From NCBI GenBank assembly GCA_022797375.1, contig JAAWKM010000001.1, positions 2,332-66,331 on the forward strand: a DNA stretch of 64,000 nucleotides, given 5' to 3'. The translations under genes were made by a program, and so were the position numbers. Under the pieces are notes generated by a model that searched no databases, had not been told where the DNA came from, and saw only the letters and a list, made by a program, of their open reading frames with translations. How positions within the stretch are numbered: position 1 is the stretch's first letter; every line of letters begins with the position of its first letter. The stretch is from Lachnospiraceae bacterium. Lineage in GTDB: Bacteria > Bacillota > Clostridia > Lachnospirales > Lachnospiraceae. Of this stretch, positions 23,927 to 52,529 are shown in pieces.

Positions 23927-24065
23927 ACTATTATAGAGAAAACTGTACTGCCTGGGATAAATATAACAACGGACAGGAATCCAGTTATATTGCTGCTTTG
24001 CAGCATTTTTGCAGAAGCAGGTGCTTATGTAAAATATAAAAATGGAAAACGGGGGAGGAATGGAT

Positions 24066-26804: not shown

Positions 26805-26833
26805 TATATTGAAAGGATATGGTTATTTGTAAT

Positions 26834-27301
26834 ATGGCAAAGAAAACTACTAAATTAGTAGCAGGCAATAAAAAGGCATTCCATGAATATTTTATTGAAG
26901 AAAAGTATGAAGCTGGAATATCACTTGCTGGTACAGAAGTAAAGTCGCTCCGTATGGGCAAATGCAGTATTAAAGAGGCTTTTGTACGTCTGTACAGAGG
27001 TGAAATATATGTTTATAATATGCATATAAGTCCATATGAGAAAGGGAATATTTTTAATAAAGACCCCATAAGGACAAGAAAGCTCCTTCTGCACCGTCAT
27101 GAGATACGTAAAATTGAAGGCCAGATAGCACAGAAGGGTTATACAATGGTCCCACTAAATGTATATTTCAAAGGAAGCCTTGTAAAAGTTGAAATTGGTC
27201 TTGCAAAGGGTAAGAAACTTTATGATAAGAGACAGGATATTGCTAAAAAAGACCAGCGCAGGGAGGCAGAAAGGAAGTTTAAGGTACAAAATCTTTATTG
27301 A
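26834..27301 (+). CDS. smpB: SsrA-binding protein SmpB
   Basis: [29 protein letters not shown]... canonical SmpB N-terminus. Confidence 0.9.
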
Positions 27302-27483
27302 ATCCAGCGTAATAATCCAGCCTTCCATAATTAAGCTGTGCCTGTTGGATTTATTTTTTGACAAATATCCAGATATGTGTTATAGTATAAAAATGTATTA
27401 ATTGTATATATTTATAATAAGTATTCCCGTACCATGTCCAGATATGTATTGCGGGACATGGTACGGGGTTAAATAGTAAACAA

Positions 27484-27824
27484 GGGGTTGTACTGGTTTC
27501 GACGGGTCTTTTGAAGATGGAGAAGCTGTCCGTAGCGGGCACTACGTTAAAAGTCCAACTAAAATATAAACGCTGAAGACAATTTAGCATTAGCTGCCTA
27601 AGCGCAGCTCACTGGCCTCCGCTTTCCGCGGCGGGGATAACCAGTGTCACCCCAGCGGAACACTCTGTTGCTAAAGCTTTGAAGCAGCAGAAAATTCATG
27701 AAGCTACTAAAGGGTAAAGCCTGCTAGTGGGCGTTACCTGGAGGGAATGTCTAAACACTTGCTATGACAGTAGAAGTACATTGGATCTGGGTCCGGACAG
27801 GGGTTCGACTCCCCTCAGCTCCAC
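27484..27824 (+). ncRNA. ssrA: tmRNA (SsrA)
   Basis: 5' ggggttgtactggtttcgacggg; tag reading frame ending AEDNLALAA-TAA (27572-27601); 3' T-arm ggggttcgactcccc; acceptor GGGGUUG/CAGCUCC with G3-U; directly follows smpB. Confidence 0.9.
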
Positions 27825-28045: not shown

Positions 28046-28258
28046 GTGAAATTATTAAGCAGACATGAAAAAACAATAGTGGTATTATTTATAATTGCTA
28101 CTTTTTTATTAATAGTATCTCTTTTACCAGGAGGATATGAAGAAGCAACAAACATATTACAAGGATTGGCAACAGGAGTAATAAGTGGTATTGTATTATT
28201 ATTTATTAATGGTATAAAAAGCAAGGAGTATAGACAATTAACTGAAATTATTGTCTGA
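28046..28258 (+). CDS. Small 2-TM membrane protein, hypothetical
   Basis: 70-aa ORF, GTG start 12 nt after ggagg; two hydrophobic helices; only plus-strand ORF at the island edge. Confidence 0.4.
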   Translation: MKLLSRHEKTIVVLFIIATFLLIVSLLPGGYEEATNILQGLATGVISGIVLLFINGIKSKEYRQLTEIIV

Positions 28259-29890
28259 GTTCATCACAAGTGTTTTGGTTGCATCAAGCCCGTTTTCAAA
28301 CATACTGGTGAAGTTGTCCAGTTTCTTGTCATTTGCTGCGGACTGGCGTTTTATGTAACTGAAACTTGTAGCCATTGATTTTGCATTTTCCAGTATTTTT
28401 GCTGTACTGCTGCTTAGGGAATTGCCAGTTAATGTGTCTGAAAATGTTACATCAATGTTTTCAACGGGACTGAAATCAAATGATACACTGGCAAGCCTCA
28501 TTTTAACCAGGCTGCTGTCATATCTTGCTCTTATATAATTGCCCAATGCAAAATACTGGTAATAATCCCTGTAATCTGCTATTGACAGCAGGTTTCCCAT
28601 TTTTATTGTAATGGTGTATTGTAACTGGCAGGCTTTGGCAAGCTCTTCTTTGGCAAGGTCTATAAGTTCCTCAATACGGGCCATTAACTGTGAATCATCA
28701 AGCCCGTCAGATATAAAGTTATTGTTGTTGTATACTTGTTCACGTTTAAATGAAAGGAGTTCATTATACAGGGTCTTTCCAAGGTAATTTTCAAGGTTAC
28801 AGGCAGCATTTATTTCATTAAGTCTTTTGTCTATGGCTTCTATCCTGTCATTATCTTTATCCACATATCCCTGGTACTCGTTAATGACACTTTCTATATA
28901 ATTTTTGAAATATATGTACTTTTTAAGGAGTGCATCATAAACTGTTTCAGAAGATTTAGTACCGTTTGTATTTATGGCATAATAAAATGCGTAATTATGG
29001 CTGCTGGCAATATCATTATTAAGGCTGTATATTATAACTGTGCATTTTTCATAGGCATCTGCCCATGATGAAAGCTGTGTTATTGGATACTTAATTAAGC
29101 GTGGATAAACATAGTTAAAACTGTTTGATACGTCATGTGATAGAAGGCTTGTTGCAATCTGTTTTGTTATGCCATTTATTGTAATAACTTCGCCTTTTTT
29201 ACAGCCTTTTATTACAGTGTCCCCGCTTAAATCCAGGTAATTAACCATAAGAAGCGGGTCTAAGGAATTAGACAGCCTGAAATCACCATCAGTTAATATT
29301 TCTATTTCAATTAACTGTGGCATTACAGAGCCTGTTTCATCTGAGTCATTGTATATGGTAAAAGAGTTACCAGATGACAGACGTGCTTCATAGGATTGTA
29401 AAAGTGAATAACCAAAAGGTGCATCACATGTAACTGTAAGCTCTGCACCATATGTACAGCCTCCATAATTAATCCATTCCAAATCAATTTTTGAATTATA
29501 GAAGATGCTTTCATACCCGTTTTGTAAGAAGCGGAGGTATTTATACCCGTCTTTCCTGCAGAGCCACCTCATGTAATAGGCTTTTTCATAAGGACTGGCA
29601 GGGAGCACTTCCTGTGGCAGCCTTTCCAGGTTAATCCTTGCTACCTGGAAAGAAAAGGAAAGCTGTTCCTCATAATGTGAACCATGGAAATTCCATTTAT
29701 GGCTGTTTACAGCCTTGGAACTGTTGAACGTAATTTTACCACCAGAAGAAACCACGCCTTCTCTTGATGGTGAGTTAAAATCCACTATAGCTAAGTTTAC
29801 ATCACTGGCTTTCACACCATTAAATTCAAAATCTGTAGCAATCACTTTGGATACCTCCTTCCTGTTTTTGTGGCTTGTTACTGGTTGCAT
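28238..29890 (-). CDS. Distal tail protein (Dit-like N-terminus) fused to a Tal/minor-structural-protein-like C-terminal segment
   Basis: N-terminus FEFNGVKASDVNLAIVDFNSP... resembles siphophage Dit; C-terminal part LYNELLSFKREQVYNNNNF...YTITIKMGNLL...FALGNYIRARYD resembles the conserved Tal N-domain segment. Confidence 0.55.
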   Translation of the reverse strand: MQPVTSHKNRKEVSKVIATDFEFNGVKASDVNLAIVDFNSPSREGVVSSGGKITFNSSKAVNSHKWNFHGSHYEEQLSFSFQVARINLERLPQEVLPASPYEKAYYMRWLCRKDGYKYLRFLQNGYESIFYNSKIDLEWINYGGCTYGAELTVTCDAPFGYSLLQSYEARLSSGNSFTIYNDSDETGSVMPQLIEIEILTDGDFRLSNSLDPLLMVNYLDLSGDTVIKGCKKGEVITINGITKQIATSLLSHDVSNSFNYVYPRLIKYPITQLSSWADAYEKCTVIIYSLNNDIASSHNYAFYYAINTNGTKSSETVYDALLKKYIYFKNYIESVINEYQGYVDKDNDRIEAIDKRLNEINAACNLENYLGKTLYNELLSFKREQVYNNNNFISDGLDDSQLMARIEELIDLAKEELAKACQLQYTITIKMGNLLSIADYRDYYQYFALGNYIRARYDSSLVKMRLASVSFDFSPVENIDVTFSDTLTGNSLSSSTAKILENAKSMATSFSYIKRQSAANDKKLDNFTSMFENGLDATKTLVMNSDNNFS

Positions 29891-30192
29891 CAGTGTTTTA
29901 TAAACATGTATTTAATCTTGTGTATAAATTTAAAAATGCCAGGCTTTAAAAACTTTAACTGCCTGGCATATAATTCTTCATAATTTTTCTTTGTTCTTTC
30001 TAATTCCTGCCTTAAATCCTGGTACTGCATTTTTTCATATTCAAGTTCTTTTATAAGGACGGAAATTTTTTCATCATATGTACTTTTTATATCATTTGTA
30101 CTGTTGTTTCCTGCTTTTGTAAAAATATCTAATTTCTGTTGCAGGGCTTTCACTTCACTGGAAAGCATTTCTATTTTCTGGTTCTTAGTCAT
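29890..30192 (-). CDS. Hypothetical coiled-coil phage protein
   Basis: 100-aa ORF, heptad-rich; SD gaggt; stop overlaps the next start. Confidence 0.5.
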   Translation of the reverse strand: MTKNQKIEMLSSEVKALQQKLDIFTKAGNNSTNDIKSTYDEKISVLIKELEYEKMQYQDLRQELERTKKNYEELYARQLKFLKPGIFKFIHKIKYMFIKH

Positions 30193-30221
30193 TGCTGTTT
30201 ACCTCGTTTTAAATTGTAGCA

Positions 30222-30263
30222 TAGAAAAAGAGCAGGAGAGTAACTAGATGGGTTTCTTCCTGC
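30222..30263 (-). terminator. Weak candidate terminator ending the SecB-like operon transcript
   Basis: 7-bp stem (30232-30238/30257-30263) with an 18-nt loop, followed on the minus strand by tctttttct. Confidence 0.3.
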
Positions 30264-30561
30264 CCCCGGATTAGATATCATTGACTTTATATAAGGTAAA
30301 GTGTTCTCTTTTATGTATTTGTTATTTAAAAACCTAACCAAAAATTTCCTCTTTCTTATTTAGAAATTTTACCATATAAGCTTTTTTCCTGACTGGGATA
30401 AAACATATTTTTTATAGGCTGGTTAAATACCAGCTTTCATCAATTATAAATCCTGCCATATTAAATCCTCTAATGGTTGTTTGTTAGATAAAAAACAGAA
30501 GAGAACCTATGGTATTCCAAATATTTGGCTTTGTGGCAGTATTAAATATTTGTTATTAAAA

Positions 30562-30978
30562 CTATTTATTCTCCATCATTTTACTAATATTGAATACAGG
30601 TAAAACTACACATTCTACACCAGGCTGCGCTGTTAAAAGAGAAGCTTCGCTTCTTAAATATGGCATTAAAATAGCAGGTGCATTTTTAGTAATTAAGGCA
30701 TCTTTTAAATCATCTGATATGTCTTTATCTATAATGGTAAAGAAACCCGTTAAACTAATTTCAAAAAGATACTCTTCAGGTTTATTTCCAGTTAAAATTA
30801 AAGTAACCCTGTAAATTTCTGTATCTTGTTTTTGTGCAATATTAGACTGTAGTTTTAATTCAAGTTCATTATCTGAAGAAATTCCTAACCTTTTAAATTC
30901 AATGTTATCAAACATAATTTTATCTAAATGTAATATGCTTTGTATAGTTTGATTATTTTCCATATTGATACCCATCAT
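30562..30978 (-). CDS. SecB-like chaperone
   Basis: Alignable by eye to E. coli SecB over its full length: LHLDKIMFDNIEFKR ~ FQIQRIYTKDISFEA; EIYRVTLILTGN ~ DVYEVVLRVTVTA; NAPAILMPYLRSEASLLTAQPGVECVVLPVFNISKMM ~ [37 protein letters not shown]. Confidence 0.85.
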   Translation of the reverse strand: MMGINMENNQTIQSILHLDKIMFDNIEFKRLGISSDNELELKLQSNIAQKQDTEIYRVTLILTGNKPEEYLFEISLTGFFTIIDKDISDDLKDALITKNAPAILMPYLRSEASLLTAQPGVECVVLPVFNISKMMENK

Positions 30979-31629
30979 TTATGCGGCAACATTAATTGTA
31001 TCTCCGCTTCTCCATTCTTCTAATAATTCATGTTTTTGTAATATAACTGTTTTTTCATCTTGAGGCAAATATTTCTTATCTAAACCACATATTAATTTAG
31101 ATGGTTGTTTTAATTGATATTTAAAAGAGCAGTTACATATATCAATAAAACTTTCGATTTTTAAATAATTTGTCAGCATTTCATTTACCATTATATCTTT
31201 TTTTGTATCATTAAAGTGTTTTGTATTAAAAAATTCATTATCAAAATTTTGAACAAAGGTTTCTATTTCTTTAGTTAGTATCTTAAAGCAAGCATATTTC
31301 TCTGGCAACAGAGAAATATCCAAATAATCAATTGAGTGTTTGGTTACTATATCTAAAGATATTTCTTCACCAGATATTACTTTCCAGTATTCTTTTTTAT
31401 CTGTAAAGGTATTTCTCATAGGTATTTTCCCATGTAATAAATTATATACATCTAAAGATGATACATTTGTAACAATATAATTAAATTCATAAATATCTGT
31501 ACATAGTGCAACATAATACTGGAAGTTATCTTTGCATAAAAAGAAAATAGGAATATCATTATAGTCTACTAATACTTGTTCTAAATATAAATTATTATTT
31601 TCAATACAAAAGCATAATTCTTTACCCAT
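30979..31629 (-). CDS. Hypothetical protein, middle gene of the SecB-like operon (putative antitoxin position)
   Basis: 216 aa; ggagg SD lies in the end of the upstream gene; its stop abuts the SecB-like start; no family recognised. Confidence 0.6.
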   Translation of the reverse strand: MGKELCFCIENNNLYLEQVLVDYNDIPIFFLCKDNFQYYVALCTDIYEFNYIVTNVSSLDVYNLLHGKIPMRNTFTDKKEYWKVISGEEISLDIVTKHSIDYLDISLLPEKYACFKILTKEIETFVQNFDNEFFNTKHFNDTKKDIMVNEMLTNYLKIESFIDICNCSFKYQLKQPSKLICGLDKKYLPQDEKTVILQKHELLEEWRSGDTINVAA

Positions 31630-31633
31630 GGTA

Positions 31634-32083
31634 TTATTCCTCCATTAATTCAAAACCACTAACATCAGCATCACTGTAAAGCCACCAGCATACATGTTGC
31701 TTTTCTATTTTTGTTTCTTGTGGACCACCTGCTCTATGGACATATCCCACAGCCATTTTTTTATTAGGGTTAGGAAACTTCATCTTTTGTTCTATTATTT
31801 CCTTTTTCAGAAAAGTTGATACACCATAATAATGAGGATCTTTGATTAAGTCTTCTTTGTTGACTCCTCTAGGACATTTAGGTTTTTTGCCTAACTCAAA
31901 GTATGATTTAAAATCCTCTAATGTAATCTTACTATTATCATCCATTTTCCGTTCTACAGCTCTATATGTTAGTATTTTTTCATAATCAACCTTTGTCGTA
32001 TCTGGTAATTCTATTTCCTTATTTAGTAATTTATTTCTTAAAATAATAGGAAATTTCATGTATAATTCTTCTGATAACTGCAT
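31634..32083 (-). CDS. Hypothetical protein, first gene of the SecB-like operon (putative toxin position)
   Basis: 149 aa; 4-nt gap to the next gene; no family recognised; start uncertain (ATG 32083 or 32059). Confidence 0.55.
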   Translation of the reverse strand: MQLSEELYMKFPIILRNKLLNKEIELPDTTKVDYEKILTYRAVERKMDDNSKITLEDFKSYFELGKKPKCPRGVNKEDLIKDPHYYGVSTFLKKEIIEQKMKFPNPNKKMAVGYVHRAGGPQETKIEKQHVCWWLYSDADVSGFELMEE

Positions 32084-32130
32084 TTATCAATATCCAGCTT
32101 TCTGTATCTTGTTGTTTTTATTTATAATGA

Positions 32131-32159
32131 ATATTAAAAAAAATTTTATGTTTTGTAAA
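32131..32159 (-). promoter_or_regulatory. Candidate sigmaA promoter of the SecB-like operon
   Basis: On the minus strand TTTACA - 17 nt - TAATAT. The region is AT-rich, so specificity is limited. Confidence 0.35.
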
Positions 32160-32386
32160 ACTTATTTTAACACAAAATAATTCCAAATACCAGATTTAAT
32201 TTTAATATTTATGATAAAGCTACAAAGGTTAATATTTTATGGGGTTAATCCATTATAATCCTTTGGTTTTAATTCTATATTTCTTTTATATTTTTAAAAG
32301 TTTACATACATTAAGCATATATCTTCCTTCATTAACAGATACATACAGGGCTGTTTCCAGCCCTGCAAAATATCTGCCTTACCAGC

Positions 32387-35300
32387 TTAATACTTCATAT
32401 GTGCATAATTATTCCCTGTAACTTTTCCAAGCACAACATCTGTCATAAAGTTCCTGAATTTGTTGTCATGCTGTATTTCTTTTTTCAGGCTTTCCAGGTC
32501 ATGTATGTTACTGCCGTCAATATTAAATACCATGCTGCCCATGCTTATACTGTTGTCATTGTTAATGGCTGTGTTATATGAAGGTGTCTTCAATGCTGCT
32601 GGTACTATGTCTGTAGTTCTGGTTAATTCTGGAAGCTTTGTGATTAAGTCTTTAAACATTTCTGTCTGTTCCAGATTTAATATTGCTTCGCCTTTCTGTA
32701 CAACACACCAGCCATCATCACCTGTTCTGCCTGGTACTGTCTTTAGTATTTCAGCAATACCACCTTCTGAATAGCCAATGCTTTTTAAATCATCTGCTGC
32801 TATCTGCCGCCATCCGTCCTGTGCAGTGCTTACGCCAAGTATTTTTGCAAGGGTTTCAGCATGTCCTGCATCTGTAAGTATTTTATTTGTTTTTGAGTAA
32901 ATATAGCTGTTTAACGGGTCATACCTGAGTGCCATTGTTTCAGAACCTTCTGGTGTCCTTAAATTACTGTTGATAAAGTTTATAGCCTTTGTTTTCATGC
33001 CATTAGTGCCATTGTCTGCACTTTCCATTTGGTTCTGTACATAGTTACCCATTGCAGCACTTCCCTGGATTTGGTGTACTTCTGTAGTATGTTTGTTCCA
33101 TCCAAGCTGTGATGCAAGTCCTTCTGCAATGGTATTCCTGAACTCTGCATAAATACCGCCATTATAATTATAGCCCTTTAATGCCTTCACTGTATTTTCG
33201 GAAGTCCAGTCCCCTGTGTCGATGTCCAGAAGCTCTGCAAGTACAGTAAGATAACTGTCATCAAGGACTTTGCCTGTGTTTTCAAGCAGCATAAGGCTTA
33301 AACCGTCTTTGTATACGCGTTTGCTCCAGTCATTGCCAGCCTGGTCACTGCCATATGCTTTCTGCCCTTTGCTTTCCACCAGTTTTTTGATTTTATCCAG
33401 TATTGTATTGCTGCCGTTATCCCATGTATTTTCTGTGGCAGGGTCTGTTATATCTGGTTTGTCATTTGGGATAGTTTCATATTTTTCTGGCTGGTAATCC
33501 TTTGTATTTTTTATTGCTTCTTCTATATCTGTTGTAAAATTGTGTGTGTTTAACCAGAGAAGCATCTGTTGTGTATTTACTGAAAGAAATGTGAGGGCAC
33601 TGCCTATGGCGTCATAGTTCCCGGTTATCGCCTTATATATGCTGTCTGCTATTGTTGCTGTTTCAGATGTCTTGTCTGCTATTGTGCTGTAACTGCCTGA
33701 AAGAGTGGAAGAGTCCAGTGCCTCTGAAAGTGTTATCCCCCACATGTCTGCAATCTCATTAAGTGTGTTATTTACAACACTTGTACTTGCTGGCATTGCC
33801 TTTATTACTTTTTCAACAAGCCATTCCATGTCTGCAAGCTGCCTGTCAATGAAATTTTCAAATTCTACAAGCATGTTATCAAGGATTTCTTCCTGGTCAC
33901 TTATATACTTTTCATATTCTGTTTCTTCAAGGTCTTTTTCAGCATCATTTAACTGTACTGTAAGTTTCTGCATTTTTGCCCTTGCTTCTTCAGTCATGTT
34001 ACCCTTTAATGCGGCAATCTGTTTCTTTATGGAAGCAATGTCTGCTGTCTTGTCCGCAATTTTATTCTGGTAGTCACGTAAATTTTTCTCTGCCTGCAAA
34101 GTTTTCTTATATTTGTCCACCAGTTTTTCCATTGCTTCTTTCTGTTTTTCGTATCCTTCACTGCAAAGTTCCTTTATGGCTTCCATTTCCTCATAACAGC
34201 CTTCAATGTAGCTTCTCTGTTGTTTAACGAGTTCATCACGGCGTTCATAGTAATCATTGAAAGACATGCTGTTTGTCCCTGAAATGTAATCTTTGTCAAG
34301 TTGTCTAAGCTGTTCCTGTATTATCTGGCTCTGGGTAATCCCATCTGTAGCTTTAAACGCATGTAGTGCAAGAGTGGAAGAGCCTTCCCTGGTGATTAAC
34401 CCTGTTTCATTGTCAAACATGTCCTTATAGGAAAGGATTTTCTCATAAAAATCTGCTTCTTCATCTAAATTGTCAATGACACCCCTGCCAAGGTCTTCAA
34501 GCTCACGTTTTGCTTCACGTATTTTTTGCGTGTTTCCAGTTATTGACTCATTTGTATTTTGTATTGCTTCATCAACAGAATAGATAATGTTACGCATTTC
34601 ATACCATTGGTCACTGCCAATACCAACATTTTTGAAATTTTCTTCAAGCCCTGTTTTCTCCTGCTTTAACATTTCCAGATGTTCTTTTTCAGATTTTACA
34701 GTTTCCTCATACATTTCTGCTGTGATAAAGCCGTTTTTTGCTTCCACAAGTGATACCTGGTGGTTAATAAAACTGGTCTTTCTGTCAATTTCATCAAGTT
34801 TCTTCTGGTATTCTGTGGCAATATTATCCATCTGTGTCTTTGCGCTTTCATTTGCTGTGCTCTGGATTCCGGCTTCAAGCCTTGCCATTTCAGTAATGTC
34901 ACCCTTAAGCTTTGCAATCTGGTATAAATATTTATATTCTTGTATTTCATTTTCAAGGGCTTTGTGCCCAAATTCATTTTTCTCTTTTGCAGATGCAGCC
35001 ACTTTAGCTTGTGTGTTTGCAAGTGTGGCACTGGCATTGTGTTCATCTGCATAATTTTGCAAAATCTGTGTATCCAGGGAAAGAAGTTCCTGCTGCTTTT
35101 CAATTTGGAGCTGTTTCTTTAGTGCTGCATTCCCTTCTGCTTTTGCAATGTTTATCTGTTCTTTATAAGATTTTTTTGTGTATTTTATTTGCTCTTTTAA
35201 TGAAGCTTCCTTATCCTTTGCAGTTTTGCCACTTTCTGCTTCAACAGAATATAAAGATACATAACTGTCATATTCGTCTTGTAAATTTTGGTGCTGCTGT

Positions 35301-38300
35301 ATTTCAATGTCAAGAAGTGCTTTTTTCTTCTCTGCTTTAAGCTGTGCAGCTTTTACAGAGTCTTTTTCAAGCTGTGCAATCTTTATCTGCTGGTTGTAGG
35401 ATATCTTAGTCCATTTCACAGACTTTTCAAGGTATTGGTTTTTACCGCTTGCTTTTGTCTTGTTTTCTGCCTGTGCATTAAGTTTTTCAATACGTGCATC
35501 TGCATCATCAATACGGTTCTGGTGCTGCTGTTCCTTTAATTCCCTGGTCTGTGTCTTTGTTTCCTGTCTTGACTTTTTAGCTTTCTGGGATTTTTCATAA
35601 TAATCCTTGTATTTCTCAATTTTGTCTGCTGTTTTTTCTCCATACTGTCTTACCAGTTCCTTGTGGCTGCCCTTAACCTGCCCGTTGTGTACTAATTCCT
35701 TAAGCTTTTCGTCAAGCTTTACACTCCCTGCCTTTGTAGCATAGGTCTTTTCTGCCTTTGCATACATCTTTTCCAGCTTTTTGCTTAATTTTATCTGCTG
35801 TCCGAGGTTTGTATTCCTTTTTTCTAAGGTGCTGTTGCTAATGGCCTGCTCTTTTACAGCTTTTTTATTTTTTACAGCTTTGTTCTTTGCTTTTATGGCA
35901 GCCTGGTACTTTGTATAATTGTTACCATATTTTTTGATTTTCTTTGTTTTGGATTTGCCATAAGTTTTAGCAAGTTGTTTACGGCTTCCATTAATCTGTC
36001 CGTTGCGTACCTGTTTTTTCAGTCTTGCAGATAATTTTACATTGTCCGCCTTTTTCTTATATCTTTTAGCTTTTTTCCTGCTGCTCTTTATCTGGTTTGT
36101 GTATTTTTTAAGATATTTGCCAGATTTGCCATTATTTATGTCAAGTTCCTGCTGTAAGGATTTCTTTTTATTTACAGCTTCTTTTTTCTTATCTCTGGCA
36201 GATTCATATTTTGAAAGGCTTTCTTTATAGCTTTCAATCAATCCTGCTTTCTTTTCACCGTATTTCTGTACAAGTTCATTATGGCCGCTCTTAACCTTGC
36301 CTTTGCGTACCTGGTTTTTAAGCTTTGAAGAAAGTTTGTTCTGGTTTGCTTCCTTCCAGTATTTCCTAACCTTTTTACCAAGGTTTGCAATAAGGCTGCC
36401 TGTTTCATTAATCTGGTCTTTAAGTACTCTGTTGCTTTTCTTTACAGCAAAAATATTTTCAAGCTTTGCCTTAAGAAAATCTATTTTATTTGTTGTTACA
36501 TCAATGGCACGCTGGAGCCAGTCAATTTCCTGTTTTGTTTCCCTGGTTTTGGAAGAAGAGCCTTTATCCTTGCCGCTGCCATTGCTGTTCTTGCCTGCGT
36601 AACCTGGACCCTTCGGGGAAATGCTGGCAGATACATTTCCGAGGTCTGCAAGTATGCCGTTTATTTCATTTGTAGCATTTGATTTCAGTACAGGGTCATC
36701 ATTTTTGATATTTACCAGGTCTTTACCACTAATATTGCCATTAAGGAACTGGTTTACAAGGTCTTGCCCGGGGGCTTGTGGGATTTTAAACCCAGCTTTT
36801 GCATTTCTGTAAGTTTCCAATGCTTTTGCACTAAGCCCAAGCCCTTTGACAAAGGCAATAAGGTTATCCAGGTCAGCCTGTGTATCTAGTGCATTGCCGT
36901 TAGCCCACAGTTTATTCAGTGCATAAAGCTGTAATGCCTTTGTAGTGCCGTCAAGTGCACCCTGTTCATTAATGAGTTCTGCAATTTCTGCACCTGTCAT
37001 GTTGGTGAAATCCTGTGTCGCCACCCATGCTTCTGCCTTTTTCCTGGCTAGTGCTTCCATTACAACCTGGTCTGCATTTACAATGCCCATTTCCTCTAAC
37101 ATGGATATGGCAGCGTCTTTATTGCTGTCATTAAGCTTTTCAAGGAAATAGTTGCTGTTTACATATGCCGTTGCAAGATTGTCAGCTGCTTTCTGGCATT
37201 CGTCCATTGAAGATGAACCATCACCAAGGATATTGACAAACTTCTGGTATTCCTTGCGGCATTTCTTTACTTCTTCTGGCATACTGGCAAGGGTATCAGC
37301 ACCAATGCCCTGTGTTTTTGTCTTTTTATCACTTAAGTTGTCTTTCTTTGTTGCAAGTATGTCTGAGATGGAAGATATGCCTTCACGCATTGAAGCTAAC
37401 ATGCTGGTGAAATCTGTATCTTTCAGTTTGTAAATTTCTTTAACTGCTTCCTCTGCTGTAAGCCCTGTCTTTTCAAGGAGGGTATTATAATTTTCAACAG
37501 ATTTGAGTGTTTCAGGTGTAAGCGTGCCAGTGTTTGAAAGTTCTAACAGGTCTGGTACAAGGTTTTTGTAATCATCACCTGTTGCATTTTTAAGTTCCTT
37601 CCAGGCTTCGGAGAAGGAAACTATGGCTGCTTCTTTTGACTTTTGCTTTGTTTCCTCAATTTTTTCTTGCAGTTCTTCAAAAGTAATACCACCAATGTTT
37701 TCGATTTTGTAAGCAATACCTAAATCGTCTGGTGCAAGTTTACTTATATTGTATTGTCCAAACAGTTCAACTAATTGATTATAATTTTCATTCTGGACAA
37801 GTCCAAGTTCCTGTGCTTTATCAATTAACTGGTCTGTTTCAAGCTTATATTTTCCAGCATAACCTTCCAAAAAGGCATAGGCTTCATTTTTGTCTTCATC
37901 ATTTGAGGCATCTGGATTATATCCTTTTATTTCATTAGTACCTTCAAATTTATCTAAAGCCTCTTTTAGTTTTTCCTTTTCTTTGCCATCAGATTTTAAA
38001 CTGTATTCCAGTTCCCATGTACCAACAATTTCCTGCATTTCAGGGTACAGGTTTTCAAGATATGTTTTAACATTTTCATCATCTGGTGCAATTTTACTTA
38101 ATTCTTCTGATAAAACAGAAGCATAATTTTCACCTGCCTTCTGGATTTCTTTATTACTGCCATCAAGTTTTGCTTTCTGGTATGATTCCATTGCATTGTT
38201 AATGTTTTCAAATATATTGTCATACCCTTTTTGGCTTCCAGACCTGCTTAGTATTTTTTCATTTAAAACATATCCATCATACAGTTCACTGTACTTATCA

Positions 38301-45379: not shown

Positions 45380-45858
45380 TCTTCCACTACAGCTAGGAGA
45401 AAATCTTCCATTACTTATATTATTGCCTTCTTACCAACTCTGGCAACGAGAGCCCTAATATGATACAGAAGCAGGAGATAAGATTCCTGCTGGTAATATA
45501 CTGCTGTATCCCAGCCTAGTCCCGAATGTATATTCTTCCACCAGCGTTTCATCTAAGTGGCTGTAGCCATTTCATTACAGTGAGGGTTCATCATTATACA
45601 AATGGGTATAATGAGAGGCTTCCCTGCGGATTTCTTTTAGTGCCACAATTTATAGTGGCAGGCACAAGATTCCCCGTCCTTGTATTATCCCAAGGTGCGT
45701 ATTCACGCCATATCGGCTTCCGCAGCAAATGGGCCACGGATTTTATTTACTGCCATGTATTTCATGGCAGGCATAGAACAGTCCTTATCTTTGCCATAAG
45801 GATTAAAAACTATGCTGTCGGCATATTATATAAACAAGAGGGAAAACATTTTATCCCT
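45380..45858 (-). ncRNA. Candidate group I intron-like structured RNA at the 3' end of the TP901-type tape-measure gene
   Basis: Minus-strand order. P1: exon GUCGGU (45864-45859) pairs with GCCGAC (45822-45817) and ends in a U-G. P-like UUGCUGCGGAAG (45728-45717). Q-like AAAUCCGCAGGGAAG (45633-45619). R-like CAUUCGGGACUAGG (45528-45515). S-like CUCCUAGCUG (45399-45390), giving a P7 with a bulged A. At least 6 local hairpins. No credible ORF. Confidence 0.5.
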
Positions 45859-47907
45859 ACCGACGTTTTTAATACCAGCAAACAGCCCGGCACCTAAACC
45901 GAGTGTGCCAGCTGAACCTAATACATTTGTAAGTTCTGTAATGCCTTGTACAAAACTGTTTAATAAATTAACACCTGTTTTAAGCCCGTCTGAGGTTATA
46001 ATAGAATTAACAAAACCTGTCCAGCTGTTAGAAAGGGCATTAAGGCTTCCAGTCAAATTTGTAGAACTTTTATTGGCTTCTTCAAGTGCAGACCCTGCAC
46101 CTTCTGAATAATCAGACAGCATTTTATCAAACATTTCCATATTCTCCAGGAGTGCTGTTAATTTTGCTGCCTGGTATTCGTTGCCTGCCACGTTAGTTAA
46201 AATTTCTGCCCTTAAAGGGTTATCTTCGTCAAGTTTGTTAAATGTTACTGCCAAATCCCTTAATATAGCTACAGGGTTTCTTAATTTTTCTGCCCCGTTG
46301 ACAACTTCAGTCATTGAAGCATTTGCTTTTTCTAATGTATCTGGTATTTTATTTGAAGTTATGTTCTGTAAATTAATTAATATGGATTTTATGCTGTTGC
46401 CTGTTTCTGGACCTCCAGATTTAGTAACAGCTTCCATGGTTCCAATCATTGCTGACAAATCTTCAATAGCAACATTATAACTTGAAGCTGCAATACTAGC
46501 TTCATTCATTGCTGTTGCCATATCTTCAAGTGTAATACCGTTTCTGTTACTTATAGAATTTTGTCCATTAAGTACAGCATTAATTTTTTCCGCAGCACCA
46601 TTAAATTTATATGCAGCATTTGTCGCAATTACATATTTATCAGCAATTTCCTGTGACATGTCACCCGCAGACTGTGCAAGTAATGACTGCTCTGCCATTG
46701 CTTCACCTTTTTTGCCATAAAATCCAGACTGTGACATGCTTTTAACACCAGATAAATAATCATTTGCAGTCCTGCCATAACTGCTTGCAGTATTATAAGC
46801 AGACATGCCAAGTTCTCTTAACTCTTCTGCTGTTATGTCTGATGTCTTGCTTATTTCCGTAAGTGTGTTGTCAAGTTCTTTAATTTCAGATATAGCACTC
46901 CTTGTTTTGGAAACAAGCATCATTACAGCAGAATTTACAGAGAACCATGATGCAAGGCTTTTTGCCGCTTGTGACATCTGTTCTTTAAATGGAATTCCAA
47001 GCTTGTTAAGGCTGGGCATTGCATTTTCTGATTTTTTAAAATCATCAGCAATGTTGTTAAACTGGGTTTTTGTCATTTGTGTATTTAAATCACGCAAGCT
47101 GTTAATATATGCCTTGTTATTGGCAATAGTTTCACTAGTTGCAGCGGAATTTTTCTGGTTCCATGCTTCAATTTCGTTTGCCTTATTTAGACGCTGCTGT
47201 GTAGTTGCAAGTCCTTTCACAGCTGCCTGGAGTTTTGCATATTCATTAGAAGACTCTGCAAGTTCTTTTTGTAATTTATCATTTAGTGATATGATTTCCT
47301 GGTAGTCATTTTTATCAAATGGCTGGTTCATTCTTTGTTCCAGGGCTGAAAATGATTTTTCTGTATTTCTTAATTTGGTATTAATTTCATCCTGTGACAG
47401 TCCAAGGCTTCTGAAATTACCAGCCAGTTTTGCAATCTGGGTGGAATAGTCGTTTTTAATCCCACCATTTGTAAGTGATAATATTCTGTCTATTAATTCA
47501 TTTTCATATGTCACTGTTGTATGGTGTAGTCCCTTGGAATTTGTCCATTTGCTTACCAGTTTGTCCATCTCTGCATTAAACTGGCTGGAAGTGGAAGGGT
47601 CTATTTTAAAGTATTTTCCAATTGATTTTGAACTGGCATTGTCTATTGCCTTCTGTGCATTATCAGAAATTATTTTTCCAATCTGTTGTCCAGATTTGGA
47701 GGCCTGTGCCATAGTATTGTTCCCTAAAACAAGGTTTAAATCTATACCCGCTTTTGACAGCTGTTCCTTTAAACTTTTAATTGCCGTCCTGTCTAAATTT
47801 AATTTCTGGATATGTACTGATAAATCATTAATCTTTGACAGTTGCTCCTGTATATCTTTGGCATCAATGACTGCCTGTAATAGTACCTGGAGATCTGAAT
47901 TTTCCAT
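45826..47907 (-). CDS. Tail tape-measure protein, TP901-family core type (693 aa as read through)
   Basis: ...ELRELGMSAYNTASSYGRTANDYLSGVKSMSQSGFYGKKGEAMAEQSLLAQSAGD... core region; C-terminal hydrophobic GTLGLGAGLFAGI. The last 11 codons (45826-45858) lie inside the intron-like RNA. Confidence 0.8.
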   Translation of the reverse strand: MENSDLQVLLQAVIDAKDIQEQLSKINDLSVHIQKLNLDRTAIKSLKEQLSKAGIDLNLVLGNNTMAQASKSGQQIGKIISDNAQKAIDNASSKSIGKYFKIDPSTSSQFNAEMDKLVSKWTNSKGLHHTTVTYENELIDRILSLTNGGIKNDYSTQIAKLAGNFRSLGLSQDEINTKLRNTEKSFSALEQRMNQPFDKNDYQEIISLNDKLQKELAESSNEYAKLQAAVKGLATTQQRLNKANEIEAWNQKNSAATSETIANNKAYINSLRDLNTQMTKTQFNNIADDFKKSENAMPSLNKLGIPFKEQMSQAAKSLASWFSVNSAVMMLVSKTRSAISEIKELDNTLTEISKTSDITAEELRELGMSAYNTASSYGRTANDYLSGVKSMSQSGFYGKKGEAMAEQSLLAQSAGDMSQEIADKYVIATNAAYKFNGAAEKINAVLNGQNSISNRNGITLEDMATAMNEASIAASSYNVAIEDLSAMIGTMEAVTKSGGPETGNSIKSILINLQNITSNKIPDTLEKANASMTEVVNGAEKLRNPVAILRDLAVTFNKLDEDNPLRAEILTNVAGNEYQAAKLTALLENMEMFDKMLSDYSEGAGSALEEANKSSTNLTGSLNALSNSWTGFVNSIITSDGLKTGVNLLNSFVQGITELTNVLGSAGTLGLGAGLFAGIKNVGRDKMFSLLFI

Positions 47908-49085: not shown

Positions 49086-52000
49086 TTATGCAGCATTTAA
49101 AAGTTTATTTAATTTAGCTTCCATATCAGAAAAACGGGCTTCAAGTTCCTGTATTTTCTTTTCCTGTGCTTTCTGGATATTTTCCAGTTCTTCATTTTTC
49201 TTATAAAGTATCTGGCAGTATCTTGTTAAATCAGAAATAAACTCTTCATAGCGCAAACCATAAGTGTATTCACCATGTATTTCTTCATGTACCATTTTTG
49301 TCCTGGTCTGTGTATTCCCATTTTCATCTGTGTATTCTTCTTCAATCTGTACTTCTTTGGTTTTTGGTGATTTTATAAAACCAGCATGGTCTTTTATATT
49401 AAGTTCTTTTAAAAGTTTTTCTACATCTTGTGCAATAAAGCCGTGGTGCGGTCTGCCGCTTTCACCGTTAATCCGTTTGAAAATACATGCCAGAAGCCCA
49501 TTTATAAATTTAGTAAGGGTTTCATCAGACATATATGTATCGTAGCCACTTTCATGACCAAGATATGAAATCTCTTTTTTTTCACTACGGTCGGAAGTTG
49601 AAATACTTCCGTTCGTTGCATAAAACTGCTTCCATCTGTCATTTGCAGTGCCTATTGTTCCCTTATTATTTCCATATGGTGATATAGCGACATTGTCTGT
49701 AGTTTCCATAAATTGAATTTGACATCTCGTGATATTATTAAATTTAAAGAATATATAACTGCTGCCAAATTCAAATGACAATCTCTCACCACCTGAATAA
49801 GTACCAGATGAGTATACATGTGTTACATATAAACTATTGAACCCATAACCTGCCTTTCCTAATGATTGCAAACCATTAGTAGTTGGTCTGAAACGGGCCC
49901 CGGAACTATTTAAACTTTCAAAAATAAAATAGCCTCCAGTATGTCCTACCGTTACAGTTGAACTGGCATTAATTTCAACTCCCTTGCTTGCATATATATT
50001 GAGATGGTCATCTGTATCCTCATAAAAATGTACATAATCACCATCACCAAAATTTAATTTCATGCCATAATTGCCACTGTTTTTTAACCTTAAATTTCCA
50101 TTGACTGTAACATTAGTGGCAGTAAGTGTTGTAAGTGCAGAAGAACCTCCTGCTGAAAAACTGTTTGCTGATACTGTGCCTGGAAAACTGCTGTTGCCAC
50201 TTTCATTTAATAATGTTAAATCCTTGTCAATCCCGTTAGTGTTAGAGTTAATCTTAGTGTTTGTAATATAATAAAGATGAATGGCACCCTGGTAATATCC
50301 AATACAGAATACACCATTATTGCTGTTCATCTTAGCAAGTATATTGTAGCCACTTGCAGCTGCTGTTGAATTAATTATGACATTTGTGCCTTTTGCACCA
50401 TTCAGGTGGGTTGAAGTAGTTATAGCTGTTGCAATGCTTCCAGTTAAATCAAGGGCTACGGCATATATCCTGTCAATATAGGCATTTGCAAAATACCAGC
50501 TGCTAGTTCCCAGGGCACTGTGCCCGCTTCCTCTGGTTCCGCTCTGGTATGGGATTAGGCCAGCAAGTGTAGTCCTTACCCAGTCACCACTGCCTGTTGC
50601 ACCATTAACACTCATTCCCCAGTAACTATTTGCAAAAACTTGCGCCATAAAAACATTTTTATTTACAGACTGTAAAGTATATCCGTTCCATACAGCCAAA
50701 TATGTAAAACCACTATAGGCTAATGCTGCCGTACTGTAATTGAAAGCTATGGTATTACCATTTCCAGCATCTCGCATTCTCTCACTTATGTAAATTCTGC
50801 CTCCAAATGGTACAGTTGTCCCTCCTGGATTAGATGTTACCTGGGTATTAGGGAATGTTATTGTAATATATGGATTATAAGTATTACTAACAAATTTAAC
50901 ATCTATTCTCCCATATGCTTCGTTTTTCTGCATATAGAAATCCCATGTAGATGTTGCAGATTTTACATAGGTTATTCCGTTATCATTATAACCACCATAT
51001 CTAAAACAACTGCTCATTCCTGGGTCGGTTCCATTTACAGATTGAAAACAGATATTTAAAAATATGTTATCCCATTGACGGCCGCCAATTATTACAAAAA
51101 CTGGATAATTCACATAAGTGCCTGTAATTTTAATGGTCATAAACTTAACCCATCCAGCAGTACCATTAGTGCCAGGTTCTAAAGCTGCATAGTAATGTCC
51201 TTTATTTATAATAGCTCCAGAAGTTACTTCTATACCATTTGTTAAAGTAGCTTTTGCTGCTAAAATATTAGCATAATTTGTACTGTTACTTACAGCCGCA
51301 CCTCTGGCAAAAATATATTGCTCTATAGGAGTAGCAGCTACGCCATCAGTCTTGCCATCACGGTAATTAAACCACGCATTACCTTGTGTATTTCCATTTC
51401 CTGGAATGATAAAGTTATATTCGTTCATATGTTCTGGATTTCGTGGCATAGTATAAGAAGTAAAATTTTTTTCATCTAAGATTACTCTTTCTCCATACCA
51501 TTCGCCATTAATCATTTTATTCCAGATTAAGTCTTTAGCTTTATCATTTTCACCAGCTGGCACAGCTAGCATTCTTGTATATATGTATAATCCATATTTA
51601 TCTCCGTCAGCAGTTCCATATGCTGGATTACCATTTTTGTGTTTTAAAACTAAGATGTTAATCCATTTTTCCCACGAGTTGGTTGCATAATCCAAGTTTG
51701 CTGTATATAAACCCCCACGTGTTTTTTTAAACCAATCCTTAAAATCCAATATAGATGATATAGTTCCAGAAGCAGGAAGACCCATAATACCGCCAGTTTG
51801 TGCAGTTTCTGGCATTAAAGCTTCTTGTAAAAAGCTTGATAGATTATGTTCTGTTACAAATTCTATCCAATCAGAAAATGTACCATCCTGGTTTGCGGCT
51901 CTCATATAAGCCGTAATGGGCATGCCATTTCCAAGACATAACTGTGCTCCCATTGTACCATTATCCCAGCCAGTATTAATTATAAAGCCATCTTTTTCAG

Positions 52001-52529
52001 GCCTGCCTTCTGTCATTGAAACTGTAGCTAACATATAGGTTATTCTATTCTGGTATTGTATTTTAGAAAAATCAATATTACAGGATGCAGGTCTTTCCTT
52101 GAAATTGTTAATTATGCCCAGGCTGTTATCAGATGTCCCATGCAATGGCAATGCGCCTACATCTTCATATGTAAGGGCTTCTAATGCTTTTGTAACTGCC
52201 TGGTTTTCCACAAGGTTAGGGCTGGTGGAAGAGAGTTCTTTGTCTATTGTTATATTGCAGTAGTCATTATCATCTGTGATATATACAATAGTACCAGGGC
52301 TGATTTCTCCCTTTATATTTTTTTCTTCATATTCTTTTTGTGTACCTATAAAAATATTTTCTGTATAATCCAGGTCATTCCAGTGTGAAACACCATCACC
52401 TATTTTATATTTCCCATATTTGTCTTTGGTATAGGCTAACTGCCCTGCCAGAAGGACAGGGTTGTTGGCTTTGTAATTTTCTTCTGTGTCATAACACTGT
52501 TTGATTTTCACATTAATCTTGTTTTCCAT
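49086..52529 (-). CDS. Tail fibre protein with C-terminal S74-type intramolecular chaperone domain
   Basis: N-terminal ...NPVLLAGQLAYTKDKYGKYKIGDGVSHWNDLDY fibre motif; C-terminal SDRSEKKEI...HGFIAQDVEKLL...YGLRYEEFI plus a coiled coil. Confidence 0.8.
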   Translation of the reverse strand: MENKINVKIKQCYDTEENYKANNPVLLAGQLAYTKDKYGKYKIGDGVSHWNDLDYTENIFIGTQKEYEEKNIKGEISPGTIVYITDDNDYCNITIDKELSSTSPNLVENQAVTKALEALTYEDVGALPLHGTSDNSLGIINNFKERPASCNIDFSKIQYQNRITYMLATVSMTEGRPEKDGFIINTGWDNGTMGAQLCLGNGMPITAYMRAANQDGTFSDWIEFVTEHNLSSFLQEALMPETAQTGGIMGLPASGTISSILDFKDWFKKTRGGLYTANLDYATNSWEKWINILVLKHKNGNPAYGTADGDKYGLYIYTRMLAVPAGENDKAKDLIWNKMINGEWYGERVILDEKNFTSYTMPRNPEHMNEYNFIIPGNGNTQGNAWFNYRDGKTDGVAATPIEQYIFARGAAVSNSTNYANILAAKATLTNGIEVTSGAIINKGHYYAALEPGTNGTAGWVKFMTIKITGTYVNYPVFVIIGGRQWDNIFLNICFQSVNGTDPGMSSCFRYGGYNDNGITYVKSATSTWDFYMQKNEAYGRIDVKFVSNTYNPYITITFPNTQVTSNPGGTTVPFGGRIYISERMRDAGNGNTIAFNYSTAALAYSGFTYLAVWNGYTLQSVNKNVFMAQVFANSYWGMSVNGATGSGDWVRTTLAGLIPYQSGTRGSGHSALGTSSWYFANAYIDRIYAVALDLTGSIATAITTSTHLNGAKGTNVIINSTAAASGYNILAKMNSNNGVFCIGYYQGAIHLYYITNTKINSNTNGIDKDLTLLNESGNSSFPGTVSANSFSAGGSSALTTLTATNVTVNGNLRLKNSGNYGMKLNFGDGDYVHFYEDTDDHLNIYASKGVEINASSTVTVGHTGGYFIFESLNSSGARFRPTTNGLQSLGKAGYGFNSLYVTHVYSSGTYSGGERLSFEFGSSYIFFKFNNITRCQIQFMETTDNVAISPYGNNKGTIGTANDRWKQFYATNGSISTSDRSEKKEISYLGHESGYDTYMSDETLTKFINGLLACIFKRINGESGRPHHGFIAQDVEKLLKELNIKDHAGFIKSPKTKEVQIEEEYTDENGNTQTRTKMVHEEIHGEYTYGLRYEEFISDLTRYCQILYKKNEELENIQKAQEKKIQELEARFSDMEAKLNKLLNAA

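Follow-up and report, generated by a model that had tools for sequence, protein, structure and literature searches.

Toxin-antitoxin-chaperone (TAC) systems have been proven to sense phages, with structural proteins of the phage being detected by a SecB-like chaperone. To our knowledge, only four toxin-antitoxin (TA) cores have been described in TACs (HigBA, MqsRA, HicAB, and CmdTA), and almost all of this work concerns Proteobacteria and Mycobacterium. The chaperone-addiction domains (ChADs) of these systems lie at the C-terminus, are disordered, and comprise about 100 residues with aromatics spaced along them (bioRxiv 10.1101/2024.02.24.581848), and removal of the ChAD renders the TA pair chaperone-independent (Bordes 2016, cited in bioRxiv 10.1101/2024.02.24.581848). 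CmdA ends in LAA/AA and the Mycobacterium tuberculosis HigA1 in VA, both of which are proven degrons of the ClpXP protease (PMC11618068; bioRxiv 10.1101/2024.02.24.581848), and a change of the CmdA Ala-Ala to Asp-Asp stops degradation (PMC11618068). The PD-T4-10 system of Escherichia coli ECOR65 is a validated anti-T4 abortive-infection TA, the mechanism of which is not known; its larger second protein is toxic, whereas its small first protein neutralises the toxin and cannot be deleted (PMC9519451). Here, we describe a three-gene cassette, with genes termed A, B, and C, in a 64,000-nt stretch of DNA from a gut Lachnospiraceae bacterium (contig JAAWKM010000001.1; the whole stretch is referred to below as the window). 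By analogy with the described systems, the cassette is probably a new family of TACs with a core that resembles PD-T4-10. We report as new findings the link to PD-T4-10, a conserved Ala-Ala terminus on the second protein, a puzzle of toxin-antitoxin polarity, and copies of the N-terminal domain of B that lack the tail and reside on mobile elements.

A conserved and mobile three-gene cassette

The A-B-C trio is a genuine cassette of three genes, both conserved and mobile, and not tail hardware. All three genes are co-directional on the minus strand and are separated by gaps of 4 nt (A-B) and 0 nt (B-C), with the whole open reading frame (ORF) of gene B running from 31629 to 30979 (216 aa). The ORF scan confirmed the coordinates and gaps given by the earlier note on this DNA, and the GC scan confirmed its remark that the block is more AT-rich than the flanks: the GC content forms a dip of 0.23-0.33 over positions 30400-32400, compared with 0.36-0.44 in the upstream ORF of 2307 aa and 0.32-0.40 in the downstream tail gene. 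That note had read the block as an operon of three genes with the layout of a moron, the last gene encoding a SecB-like chaperone, and as a candidate TAC module, and every test available supports this description.

Given as clusters at 90% identity, the homologue counts are lower bounds: at least 204 homologues of A (60-91% identity, none with a Pfam domain) and at least 295 of B, all of them unnamed. The window B itself is 100% identical to a protein recorded as belonging to a metagenome-assembled genome ("MAG: Lachnospiraceae bacterium"). In the scan of genomic loci, which covered one genome per species, 33 loci carry an A homologue and 28 of them keep the A-B-C order, including 26 complete trios with tight spacing and two that are cut by contig ends. 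Among the rest, two loci have a destroyed A gene (L041 with intact B and C, and L042 with intact B and with C present up to the contig end), two are wholly decayed, and one is a two-gene variant. Most of the hosts belong to the Lachnospiraceae (Blautia, Acetatifactor, Roseburia, and others), with Oscillospiraceae, a Treponema, and a Desulfovibrio also represented. One copy of the trio lies within a polysaccharide-synthesis cluster, another between phospholipid-synthesis and dehydrogenase genes, and many have housekeeping genes as neighbours and no further defence gene in the vicinity.

Since the trio recurs in unrelated chromosomal, prophage, and defence-island contexts, a tail-structural role is excluded; such recurrence fits a selfish or defence cassette. 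Co-occurrence outside this phage was the earlier note's own test of its proposal, and its presence in 28 of 33 loci and in unrelated contexts answers that test, while the finding of the trio in non-phage chromosomal contexts removes the objection that the first two proteins are conserved tail components. A recurrence at the same slot in related prophages, which the note had also considered, did not emerge. A DNA search of INPHARED with the cassette and tblastn searches with A and B were empty; scanning IMG/VR with the tail protein and with alignments of A and of B likewise gave nothing, and the tail-region proteins of the window gave no tblastn match to any of the retrieved loci.

Three distant trios were also observed. 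One (L045/L046:1342-7287) directly follows the tape-measure gene of another phage and adjoins a TIR_2 protein, one (L059:52-7609) adjoins HATPase_c_3 and a Bil-like ThiF/Multi_ubiq/BubE set, and one (L061:4001-8438) adjoins a TIR protein; their surroundings are defence-island-like.

The three proteins and the remote link of A and B to PD-T4-10

As judged from profile comparisons, protein C is a TAC-type SecB-like chaperone that is closest to CmdC. It matches the Pfam SecB model over residues 38-134 (27.7 bits, gathering cut-off 26) and the PADLOC model of CmdC, PD-T4-9_C (1.7e-15 and 1.2e-10). By the same comparisons it is not a housekeeping SecB, since it scores about 30 bits against the NCBIfam housekeeping secB equivalog with its cut-off of 102.8, and other secB models score lower still. 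A profile of 25 C homologues, searched against the whole PDB, gave three matches, all of which are SecB (1FX3, 1QYN, and 5JTL), with full-length alignments over positions 3-130 (E about 0.02); the single C sequence retrieved nothing from the PDB sequences, and the family profile alone reached SecB. In the PHROGs, C matches only groups of unknown function. The proposal that the third protein is SecB-like along its whole length is thereby upheld by the Pfam match above cut-off, the CmdC model, and the alignment to SecB structures, the last of which also leaves the SecB relation, named earlier as a point of possible refutation, unrefuted.

Protein B looks like a candidate chaperone-addicted antitoxin composed of a folded domain and a predicted disordered, degron-bearing tail. 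In its AlphaFold2 (AF2) model, the mean predicted local distance difference test score (pLDDT) is about 90 over residues 31-130, which belong to a beta-rich N-terminal domain (B-N), and falls to 42-56 across the tail, from around residue 140 up to the C-terminus. The alignments show the same division, with residues 1-135 conserved across homologues and a hypervariable tail; the mean pairwise distance is 0.81 for the tail, 0.57 for B-N, and 0.46 for A. The earlier description of B as a folded domain with a disordered C-terminal extension is therefore borne out by the pLDDT split, and the extension includes the segment that had been flagged. The conserved columns of B-N are hydrophobic (L20, P27, C32, Y39, Y51, M71, and P109), with D45 as the sole polar one. 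The tail of the window B contains aromatics at positions 139, 155, 161, 169, 171, 187, and 206 and ends in VAA; among 95 full-length homologues, the C-terminus is AA in 88 (93%) and AV in 6. The tag encoded by the host transfer-messenger RNA (tmRNA) gene, which lies within the window, is AEDNLALAA and ends in LAA, and the conserved terminal Ala-Ala of B, set against this host tag, is a new finding. By analogy with CmdA and HigA1, the tail is a candidate ChAD with a putative ClpXP-type Ala-Ala degron. Partial Mantel tests over 28 complete loci gave r(tail,C|A) = 0.41 (p = 0.0005), a tail-C value of 0.18 (p = 0.0015) when controlling for B-N, and a non-significant r(tail,A|C) of 0.03, and B-N tracks A (0.57); this is the covariation that contact of the tail with C and of B-N with A would give.

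The conservation pattern of protein A looks catalytic, and its alignment points to an enzyme-like protein. A profile search of 1.84 billion representatives yielded 234 A clusters at 50% identity, and in 98 of these, which reach as low as about 25% identity, R41 and S89 never vary and D57, F58, S60, E63, Y86, G113, G120, and H130 are near-invariant. In the AF2 model (pLDDT 89.5), the first core strand (TYRAV) holds R41 and the second (GVSTF) holds S89, a placement compatible with the topology of an R-S-type ADP-ribosyltransferase (ART); H130 starts a later strand at the position of the ART catalytic Glu, where there is no conserved Glu. Foldseek searches of the model against the PDB and BFVD gave no match at E < 0.01. 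The recurring weak matches all belong to the ART superfamily (IcmQ, four KptA/Tpt1 entries, and viral PARP and WWE proteins) and are non-significant (E 0.45-5.6, template modelling (TM) score at most 0.42). Because no Foldseek match reached E < 0.01, we do not call A an ART, although it may be NAD-dependent or ART-like. The weak ART-like spacing that the earlier note had mentioned and distrusted has gained an invariant Arg and Ser but no significant ART match. Profiles of A searched against PDB sequences gave chance matches only, with no solved relative, as did the B-N profile, and the B model retrieved nothing from the PDB by Foldseek at E < 0.01. The structure comparison suggested earlier produced AF2 models of both proteins, but Foldseek assigned neither fold.

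The window A and B have no direct match in Pfam, PADLOC, PHROGs, or NCBIfam, in agreement with the earlier statement that neither can be placed in a known family; however, distant members of their families reveal remote relatives in PD-T4-10. The PADLOC model PD-T4-10_A is matched by 9 of the 98 A-family members (best E 6.5e-4), whereas every other PADLOC family is matched by at most one of them, and the alignments follow the 148-position model co-linearly, one of them pairing residues 89-142 with positions 90-145. The second gene beside distant A homologues always begins with a B-N-like domain, which the profile of the window B matches at 2.5e-38 to 6e-9. Three of these neighbours match PD-T4-10_B over positions 7-142 of 353 (8e-8 to 1.7e-6), and they also match Pfam DUF6575 below threshold. 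In L047 and L061, B-N is followed by a tail of roughly 85 aa and a SecB-like third gene; L045 and L059 have a similar three-gene layout, with a third protein that is not confirmed as SecB-like. In L040, B-N is fused to a PDC-M63B-like region. A tblastn search of plasmids with a distant A member found nothing. Taken together, these profile matches indicate that A and B-N are an old conserved pair and that the cassette is a chaperone-equipped relative of PD-T4-10. A two-gene relative without SecB was observed in L043:4001-7186, where a 152-aa A-like protein precedes a 709-aa protein with an N-terminal B-N and a PLD-like/PDC-S05-like C-terminus, followed by a further PDC-S05-like protein of 212 aa.

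Genes that encode B-N without the tail, 134-166 aa in length and unaccompanied by A or C, were observed in L005-L009, L048, L049, and L052. They keep the first 10-25 residues of the tail and then stop, with no A or C within 4-6 kb, and they share 58-68% identity with one another and 62-64% with the window B (as measured in L005-L009). Their sites are phage-like replication modules (DNA pol III alpha, ERCC4, ExoX-like), an integrase/excisionase element, and a prophage. By analogy with antitoxins freed of their ChAD, we regard them as candidate anti-TAC decoy antitoxins, captured and chaperone-independent; their standalone, tail-less form is hard to square with a reading as unguarded toxins. In L050:4697-6408 and L051, the standalone B-N is the third gene of an operon, after a 91-aa protein that is MqsR-like as read by eye and a 334-aa MqsA-Zn-ribbon/helix-turn-helix/Panacea (PanA) antitoxin, and it holds the slot taken by the SecB chaperone in MqsRAC systems. 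The presence of PanA beside B-N in L050 was considered as a sign that B-N is toxic and was set aside, since the upstream protein, MqsR-like by eye, would be the partner of PanA/MqsA. In L008:1207-2634, the called gene adjoining the standalone B-N contains 7 in-frame stop codons under table 11, which points either to a phage that has reassigned stop codons or to a wrongly called gene.

Toxin-antitoxin polarity and the proposed switch

On balance, we lean towards A as the toxin and B as the antitoxin. This polarity is favoured by the location of the disordered tail, the AA degron, and the SecB partner on B, as an arrangement in which exposure removes B is sensible only for an inhibitor. It is also favoured by the absence from the window B of the roughly 210 C-terminal residues of PD-T4-10B, and by the polar character of the conserved residues of A as opposed to the hydrophobic conserved columns of B-N; the stronger conservation of A (0.46 versus 0.57 for B-N) was counted on the same side. 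In addition, A has been lost from two loci that retain B and C (L041 and L042), the converse being seen in none, and B-N proteins without a tail stand alone on phage-like and integrative elements. With regard to the locus as a whole, we give slightly better than even weight to an autonomous, horizontally mobile TAC cassette that forms a moron among the tail-region genes of a prophage adjoining the tmRNA gene of the host.

In the switch that we propose, A would be a small enzyme-like effector that is kept inactive by the folded B-N, and the roughly 80-residue disordered tail would make B depend on the SecB-like protein C, which would cover the tail and hide its C-terminal Ala-Ala degron. Titration of C would expose the tail; by analogy with CmdTAC and HigBAC, C would be titrated by a structural protein of an infecting phage that is abundant and slow to fold. 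Degradation of B by ClpXP would then free A, growth would stop, and the infection would be aborted, which would protect the host population of the resident prophage. Past the architecture, we infer every step of this scheme, namely the identity of the toxic partner, the binding of the tail by C, the dependence on ClpXP, the phage trigger, and the activity of A.

Several points weigh against this scheme. The sole experimental data on a homologous pair, those for PD-T4-10, give the opposite polarity, and as PD-T4-10A is experimentally an antitoxin, the order of toxin and antitoxin assumed in the earlier note is challenged. Fusions of B-N to PLD-like (L043) and PDC-M63B-like (L040) regions fit B as the carrier of an effector. 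The link to PD-T4-10 is transitive, the window A and B having no direct match to any PADLOC, Pfam, PHROG, or NCBIfam model. Protein A has no confirmed fold, its best Foldseek matches being of the ART superfamily at E > 0.4 and TM scores of 0.41-0.42. The covariation test leaves some shared ancestry or phylogeny in place, the asymmetry of decay rests on two loci, and relatives of A or B are absent from the IMG/VR and INPHARED phage collections as searched.

Mutual restraint through an A:B-N interface would accommodate both data sets, with toxicity stemming from the C-terminal domain of B in PD-T4-10 and from A in the cassette described here. A wider version of this idea, which we put forward tentatively and consider rather doubtful, is that A and B-N form an ancient portable switch that has been wired in opposite ways, with the effector placed on the B-N protein and restrained by A in PD-T4-10, and with B, pared down in this widespread Firmicute form to B-N and a SecB-guarded tail tipped by a degron, serving as a labile antitoxin of A here, and that the B-N decoys of mobile elements disarm the system. 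Under such opposite wiring, A might be enzymatically active with a new or highly divergent ART-like fold, a suggestion that we treat as no less tentative.

A reversed polarity, as in PD-T4-10, appears unlikely. In this case B would be the toxin through B-N, A would be a dedicated and possibly enzymatic antitoxin, and C would hold or stabilise the toxin through its tail, giving a chaperone-addicted toxin and not a chaperone-addicted antitoxin. The family matches to PD-T4-10_A and of the partner B-N domains to PD-T4-10_B, together with the toxicity of B and its neutralisation by A in that system, argue for this arrangement, as do the fusions of B-N to PLD-like and other effector-like domains in the two-gene relatives and the small gene that usually follows a standalone B-N and could encode an alternative antitoxin. 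However, a degron, a disordered tail, and a SecB partner on B are the design of a labile antitoxin and would not serve to set a toxin free; the window B lacks the roughly 210 C-terminal residues of PD-T4-10B, a possible seat of toxicity; and B-N has no conserved polar, catalytic-looking residues. Moreover, the loci with a destroyed A (L041 and L042) should be lethal were A the antitoxin, and the MqsA/PanA antitoxin adjacent to B-N in L050 already has a partner that is MqsR-like by eye.

Another alternative, which we likewise consider unlikely, retains the same TAC cassette and ascribes its selected role to addiction or stabilisation of the prophage and other mobile DNA, or to a general stress response, instead of defence. 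The earliest descriptions of TA and TAC modules gave them a role in stabilisation or stress (as for the M. tuberculosis TAC), many copies of the cassette lie among housekeeping genes without nearby defence genes, and PADLOC called no complete system. On the other hand, all TACs tested against phages so far defend (CmdTAC, HigBAC, and MqsRAC), the relative PD-T4-10 was isolated as an anti-T4 system, and several copies adjoin TIR, Bil-like, or HATPase genes or occupy a prophage moron slot. Finally, the possibility that the trio consists of phage tail, assembly, or chaperone accessories, such as a SecB-like assembly chaperone with two tail-associated proteins, is suggested by its place between large tail-region genes but is very improbable and in effect already refuted by the occurrence of the trio in non-phage chromosomal contexts of many genera, the distinct base composition of the cassette, the lack of PHROG matches for A and B (C matches only those of unknown function), and the absence of A or B relatives from the searched phage collections.

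Surroundings of the cassette and comparison with described systems

The cassette is situated in the tail region of a prophage (Table 1). The gene at 28238-29890 downstream of it encodes a 550-aa phage tail protein (DUF6558, 4.6e-33), and upstream ORFs match tail-fibre, tape-measure, and virion families. The 2307-aa ORF immediately upstream (32387-39310) has no match in Pfam or PHROG; the earlier note had taken it for the giant tape-measure gene, an assignment that does not hold, as the tape-measure families (PhageMin_Tail, phrog_4211) match instead a 693-aa ORF at 47907..45826, located 6.5 kb upstream of it. The layout of the tail module is unusual. The 2307-aa protein contains lysine-rich segments that are repeated three times, as seen by eye, and Tandem Repeats Finder (TRF) detects no DNA tandem repeat. 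A tail-fibre-like ORF of 1147 aa lies further upstream (52529..49086). Between the spacer and the DUF6558 gene, a 100-aa coiled-coil ORF (29890-30192), the stop of which overlaps the start of that gene, has weak matches of coiled-coil and tape-measure-like type only. To the left of the last prophage tail gene are the host genes for RNase R (24042-26804), SmpB (26819-27301), and tmRNA (27484..27824/27826); because these genes immediately adjoin it, the prophage appears to be integrated beside or into ssrA, which is a classic attachment site. Rfam additionally reports an overlapping "permuted tmRNA" match at 27400-27601, which is barely at threshold.

Table 1. Coordinates of the cassette genes and adjacent signals in the window
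Feature	Position	Strand	Description
Gene A	31634..32083	-	149 aa; small conserved alpha/beta protein, candidate effector (toxin); remote PD-T4-10A relative
Gene B, residues 1-135 (B-N)	31225..31629	-	Folded beta-rich N-domain; candidate A-binding antitoxin domain
Gene B, residues 136-216 and stop codon	30979..31224	-	Predicted disordered, fast-evolving tail ending in INVAA; candidate ChAD
Gene C	30562..30978	-	138 aa; SecB-like chaperone of putative TAC (CmdC-like) type
Promoter-like TTTACA-17-TAATAT upstream of A	32131..32159	-	9/12 matches; weak
Terminator-like G+C-rich hairpin	32344..32367	-	10-bp stem, 6 G-C pairs, poor T tract
AT-rich non-coding spacer from C to the next tail-region ORF	30193..30561	-	369 nt; ORF and GC scans

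The terminator-like hairpin sits just past the stop of the 2307-aa ORF and would insulate the cassette from tail-gene transcription. The cassette had been credited with its own promoter and an AT-rich spacer on the downstream side. The spacer is present, and the promoter site exists as well, but the AT-rich stretch has 24 promoter-like sites against 17.9 +/- 4.8 in shuffled sequences, that is, no enrichment, and since such sites are as frequent in shuffled sequence, the quoted promoter carries no weight. The downstream spacer showed neither a terminator nor significant RNA structure, and Rfam gave no match within the cassette or spacer. The strength of the Shine-Dalgarno sequences was considered as a clue to stoichiometry and rejected: the values are -9.3 kcal/mol for the window B and -3.5 kcal/mol for A, with p = 0.26 across 19 loci.

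The cassette would add a fifth core to the TACs, one that is abundant in Lachnospiraceae of the human and animal gut and reaches Treponema and Desulfovibrio. In the literature searched, no description of this A-B-C combination was found. The PADLOC check of the operon matched C to the CmdC model but called no complete system; because only the chaperone is recognised, and as a component of another system, PADLOC-type annotation would miss the complete one. For PD-T4-10, a validated system to which no mechanism has been assigned, the cassette also offers a point of entry: both have an A/B-N pair, A has an invariant Arg and Ser, and B-N carries differing C-terminal attachments (a SecB-guarded tail, PLD-like and other domains), all of which suggests a modular switch. 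The PD-T4-10 polarity set against a TAC-style degron tail constitutes a concrete testable puzzle, as do phage-borne, tail-less B-N proteins as anti-TAC factors.

In comparison with housekeeping SecB, protein C has the same fold family and aligns co-linearly over its full length, but is encoded in a TA-like operon of a Firmicute host and not in the yibN-grxC-secB-gpsA context. The order of secondary structure elements in A fits ART-fold toxins and RNA 2'-phosphotransferases (KptA/Tpt1, IcmQ, R-S-E clade); however, A lacks their conserved catalytic Glu, has H130 at that strand position, and gives no sequence-profile match to them. The classical TACs (M. tuberculosis HigBA1-SecB(TA) Rv1955-57, E. 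coli HigBAC, MqsRAC, and HicAB-SecB) share with the cassette a TA core that has a two-gene relative without a chaperone, a C-terminal ChAD-like extension, a ClpXP-type aliphatic dipeptide, and a SecB-like third gene, whereas A and B are unrelated to HigB/HigA, MqsR/MqsA, and HicA/HicB, and B is devoid of a helix-turn-helix DNA-binding domain.

CmdTAC (PD-T4-9) of E. coli ECOR22 (Vassallo 2022, 2024; Mets 2024) has the same gene order and a chaperone similar to C, its CmdA likewise possesses a disordered C-terminal extension ending in Ala-Ala, and it too occurs as an accessory gene of prophages and P2-like elements. In contrast, neither the window A nor any of the 98 family members matches PD-T4-9_A, CmdT has His/Tyr (the H-Y-[E/D/Q] triad) where A has Arg/Ser, and B has a beta-rich domain of 135 aa in place of the two short helices of CmdA. 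An apparent canonical CmdTAC, quite unlike the window cassette, was observed in a faecal phage fragment (MT837118.1, 3855-5235); its toxin is ART-like (ITGYHGTS...GAGVYFF), its 81-aa antitoxin has the C-terminus LVA, and its SecB-like protein of 130 aa is 38% identical to the window C.

PD-T4-10 of E. coli ECOR65 (Vassallo 2022) has the same gene order, with a small first protein of about 148 aa followed by a second protein with a B-N-like N-terminal region of 140 residues, the link being established through distant family members. It consists of two genes and has no chaperone, whereas the window cassette has a conserved SecB-like third gene; PD-T4-10B carries about 210 extra residues (positions 143-353, without a counterpart in the window B), where the window B has a disordered tail ending in AA; and its experimental polarity, with A as antitoxin and B as toxin, is the reverse of that implied by the TAC architecture here. 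PD-T4-10 is thus the nearest system by its TA core, yet the cassette departs from it in two of three defining features. The features held in common with TAC systems are the three-gene operon with a SecB-like last gene, the toxin, antitoxin, chaperone order of which fits A-B-C, a predicted disordered extension of the middle protein, which is absent from standalone B-N and replaced by other domains in the two-gene relatives, and an ending of Ala-Ala/Val-Ala type on the putatively chaperone-addicted protein. By these analogies, the cassette probably represents an undescribed family of chaperone-controlled phage-defence switches.

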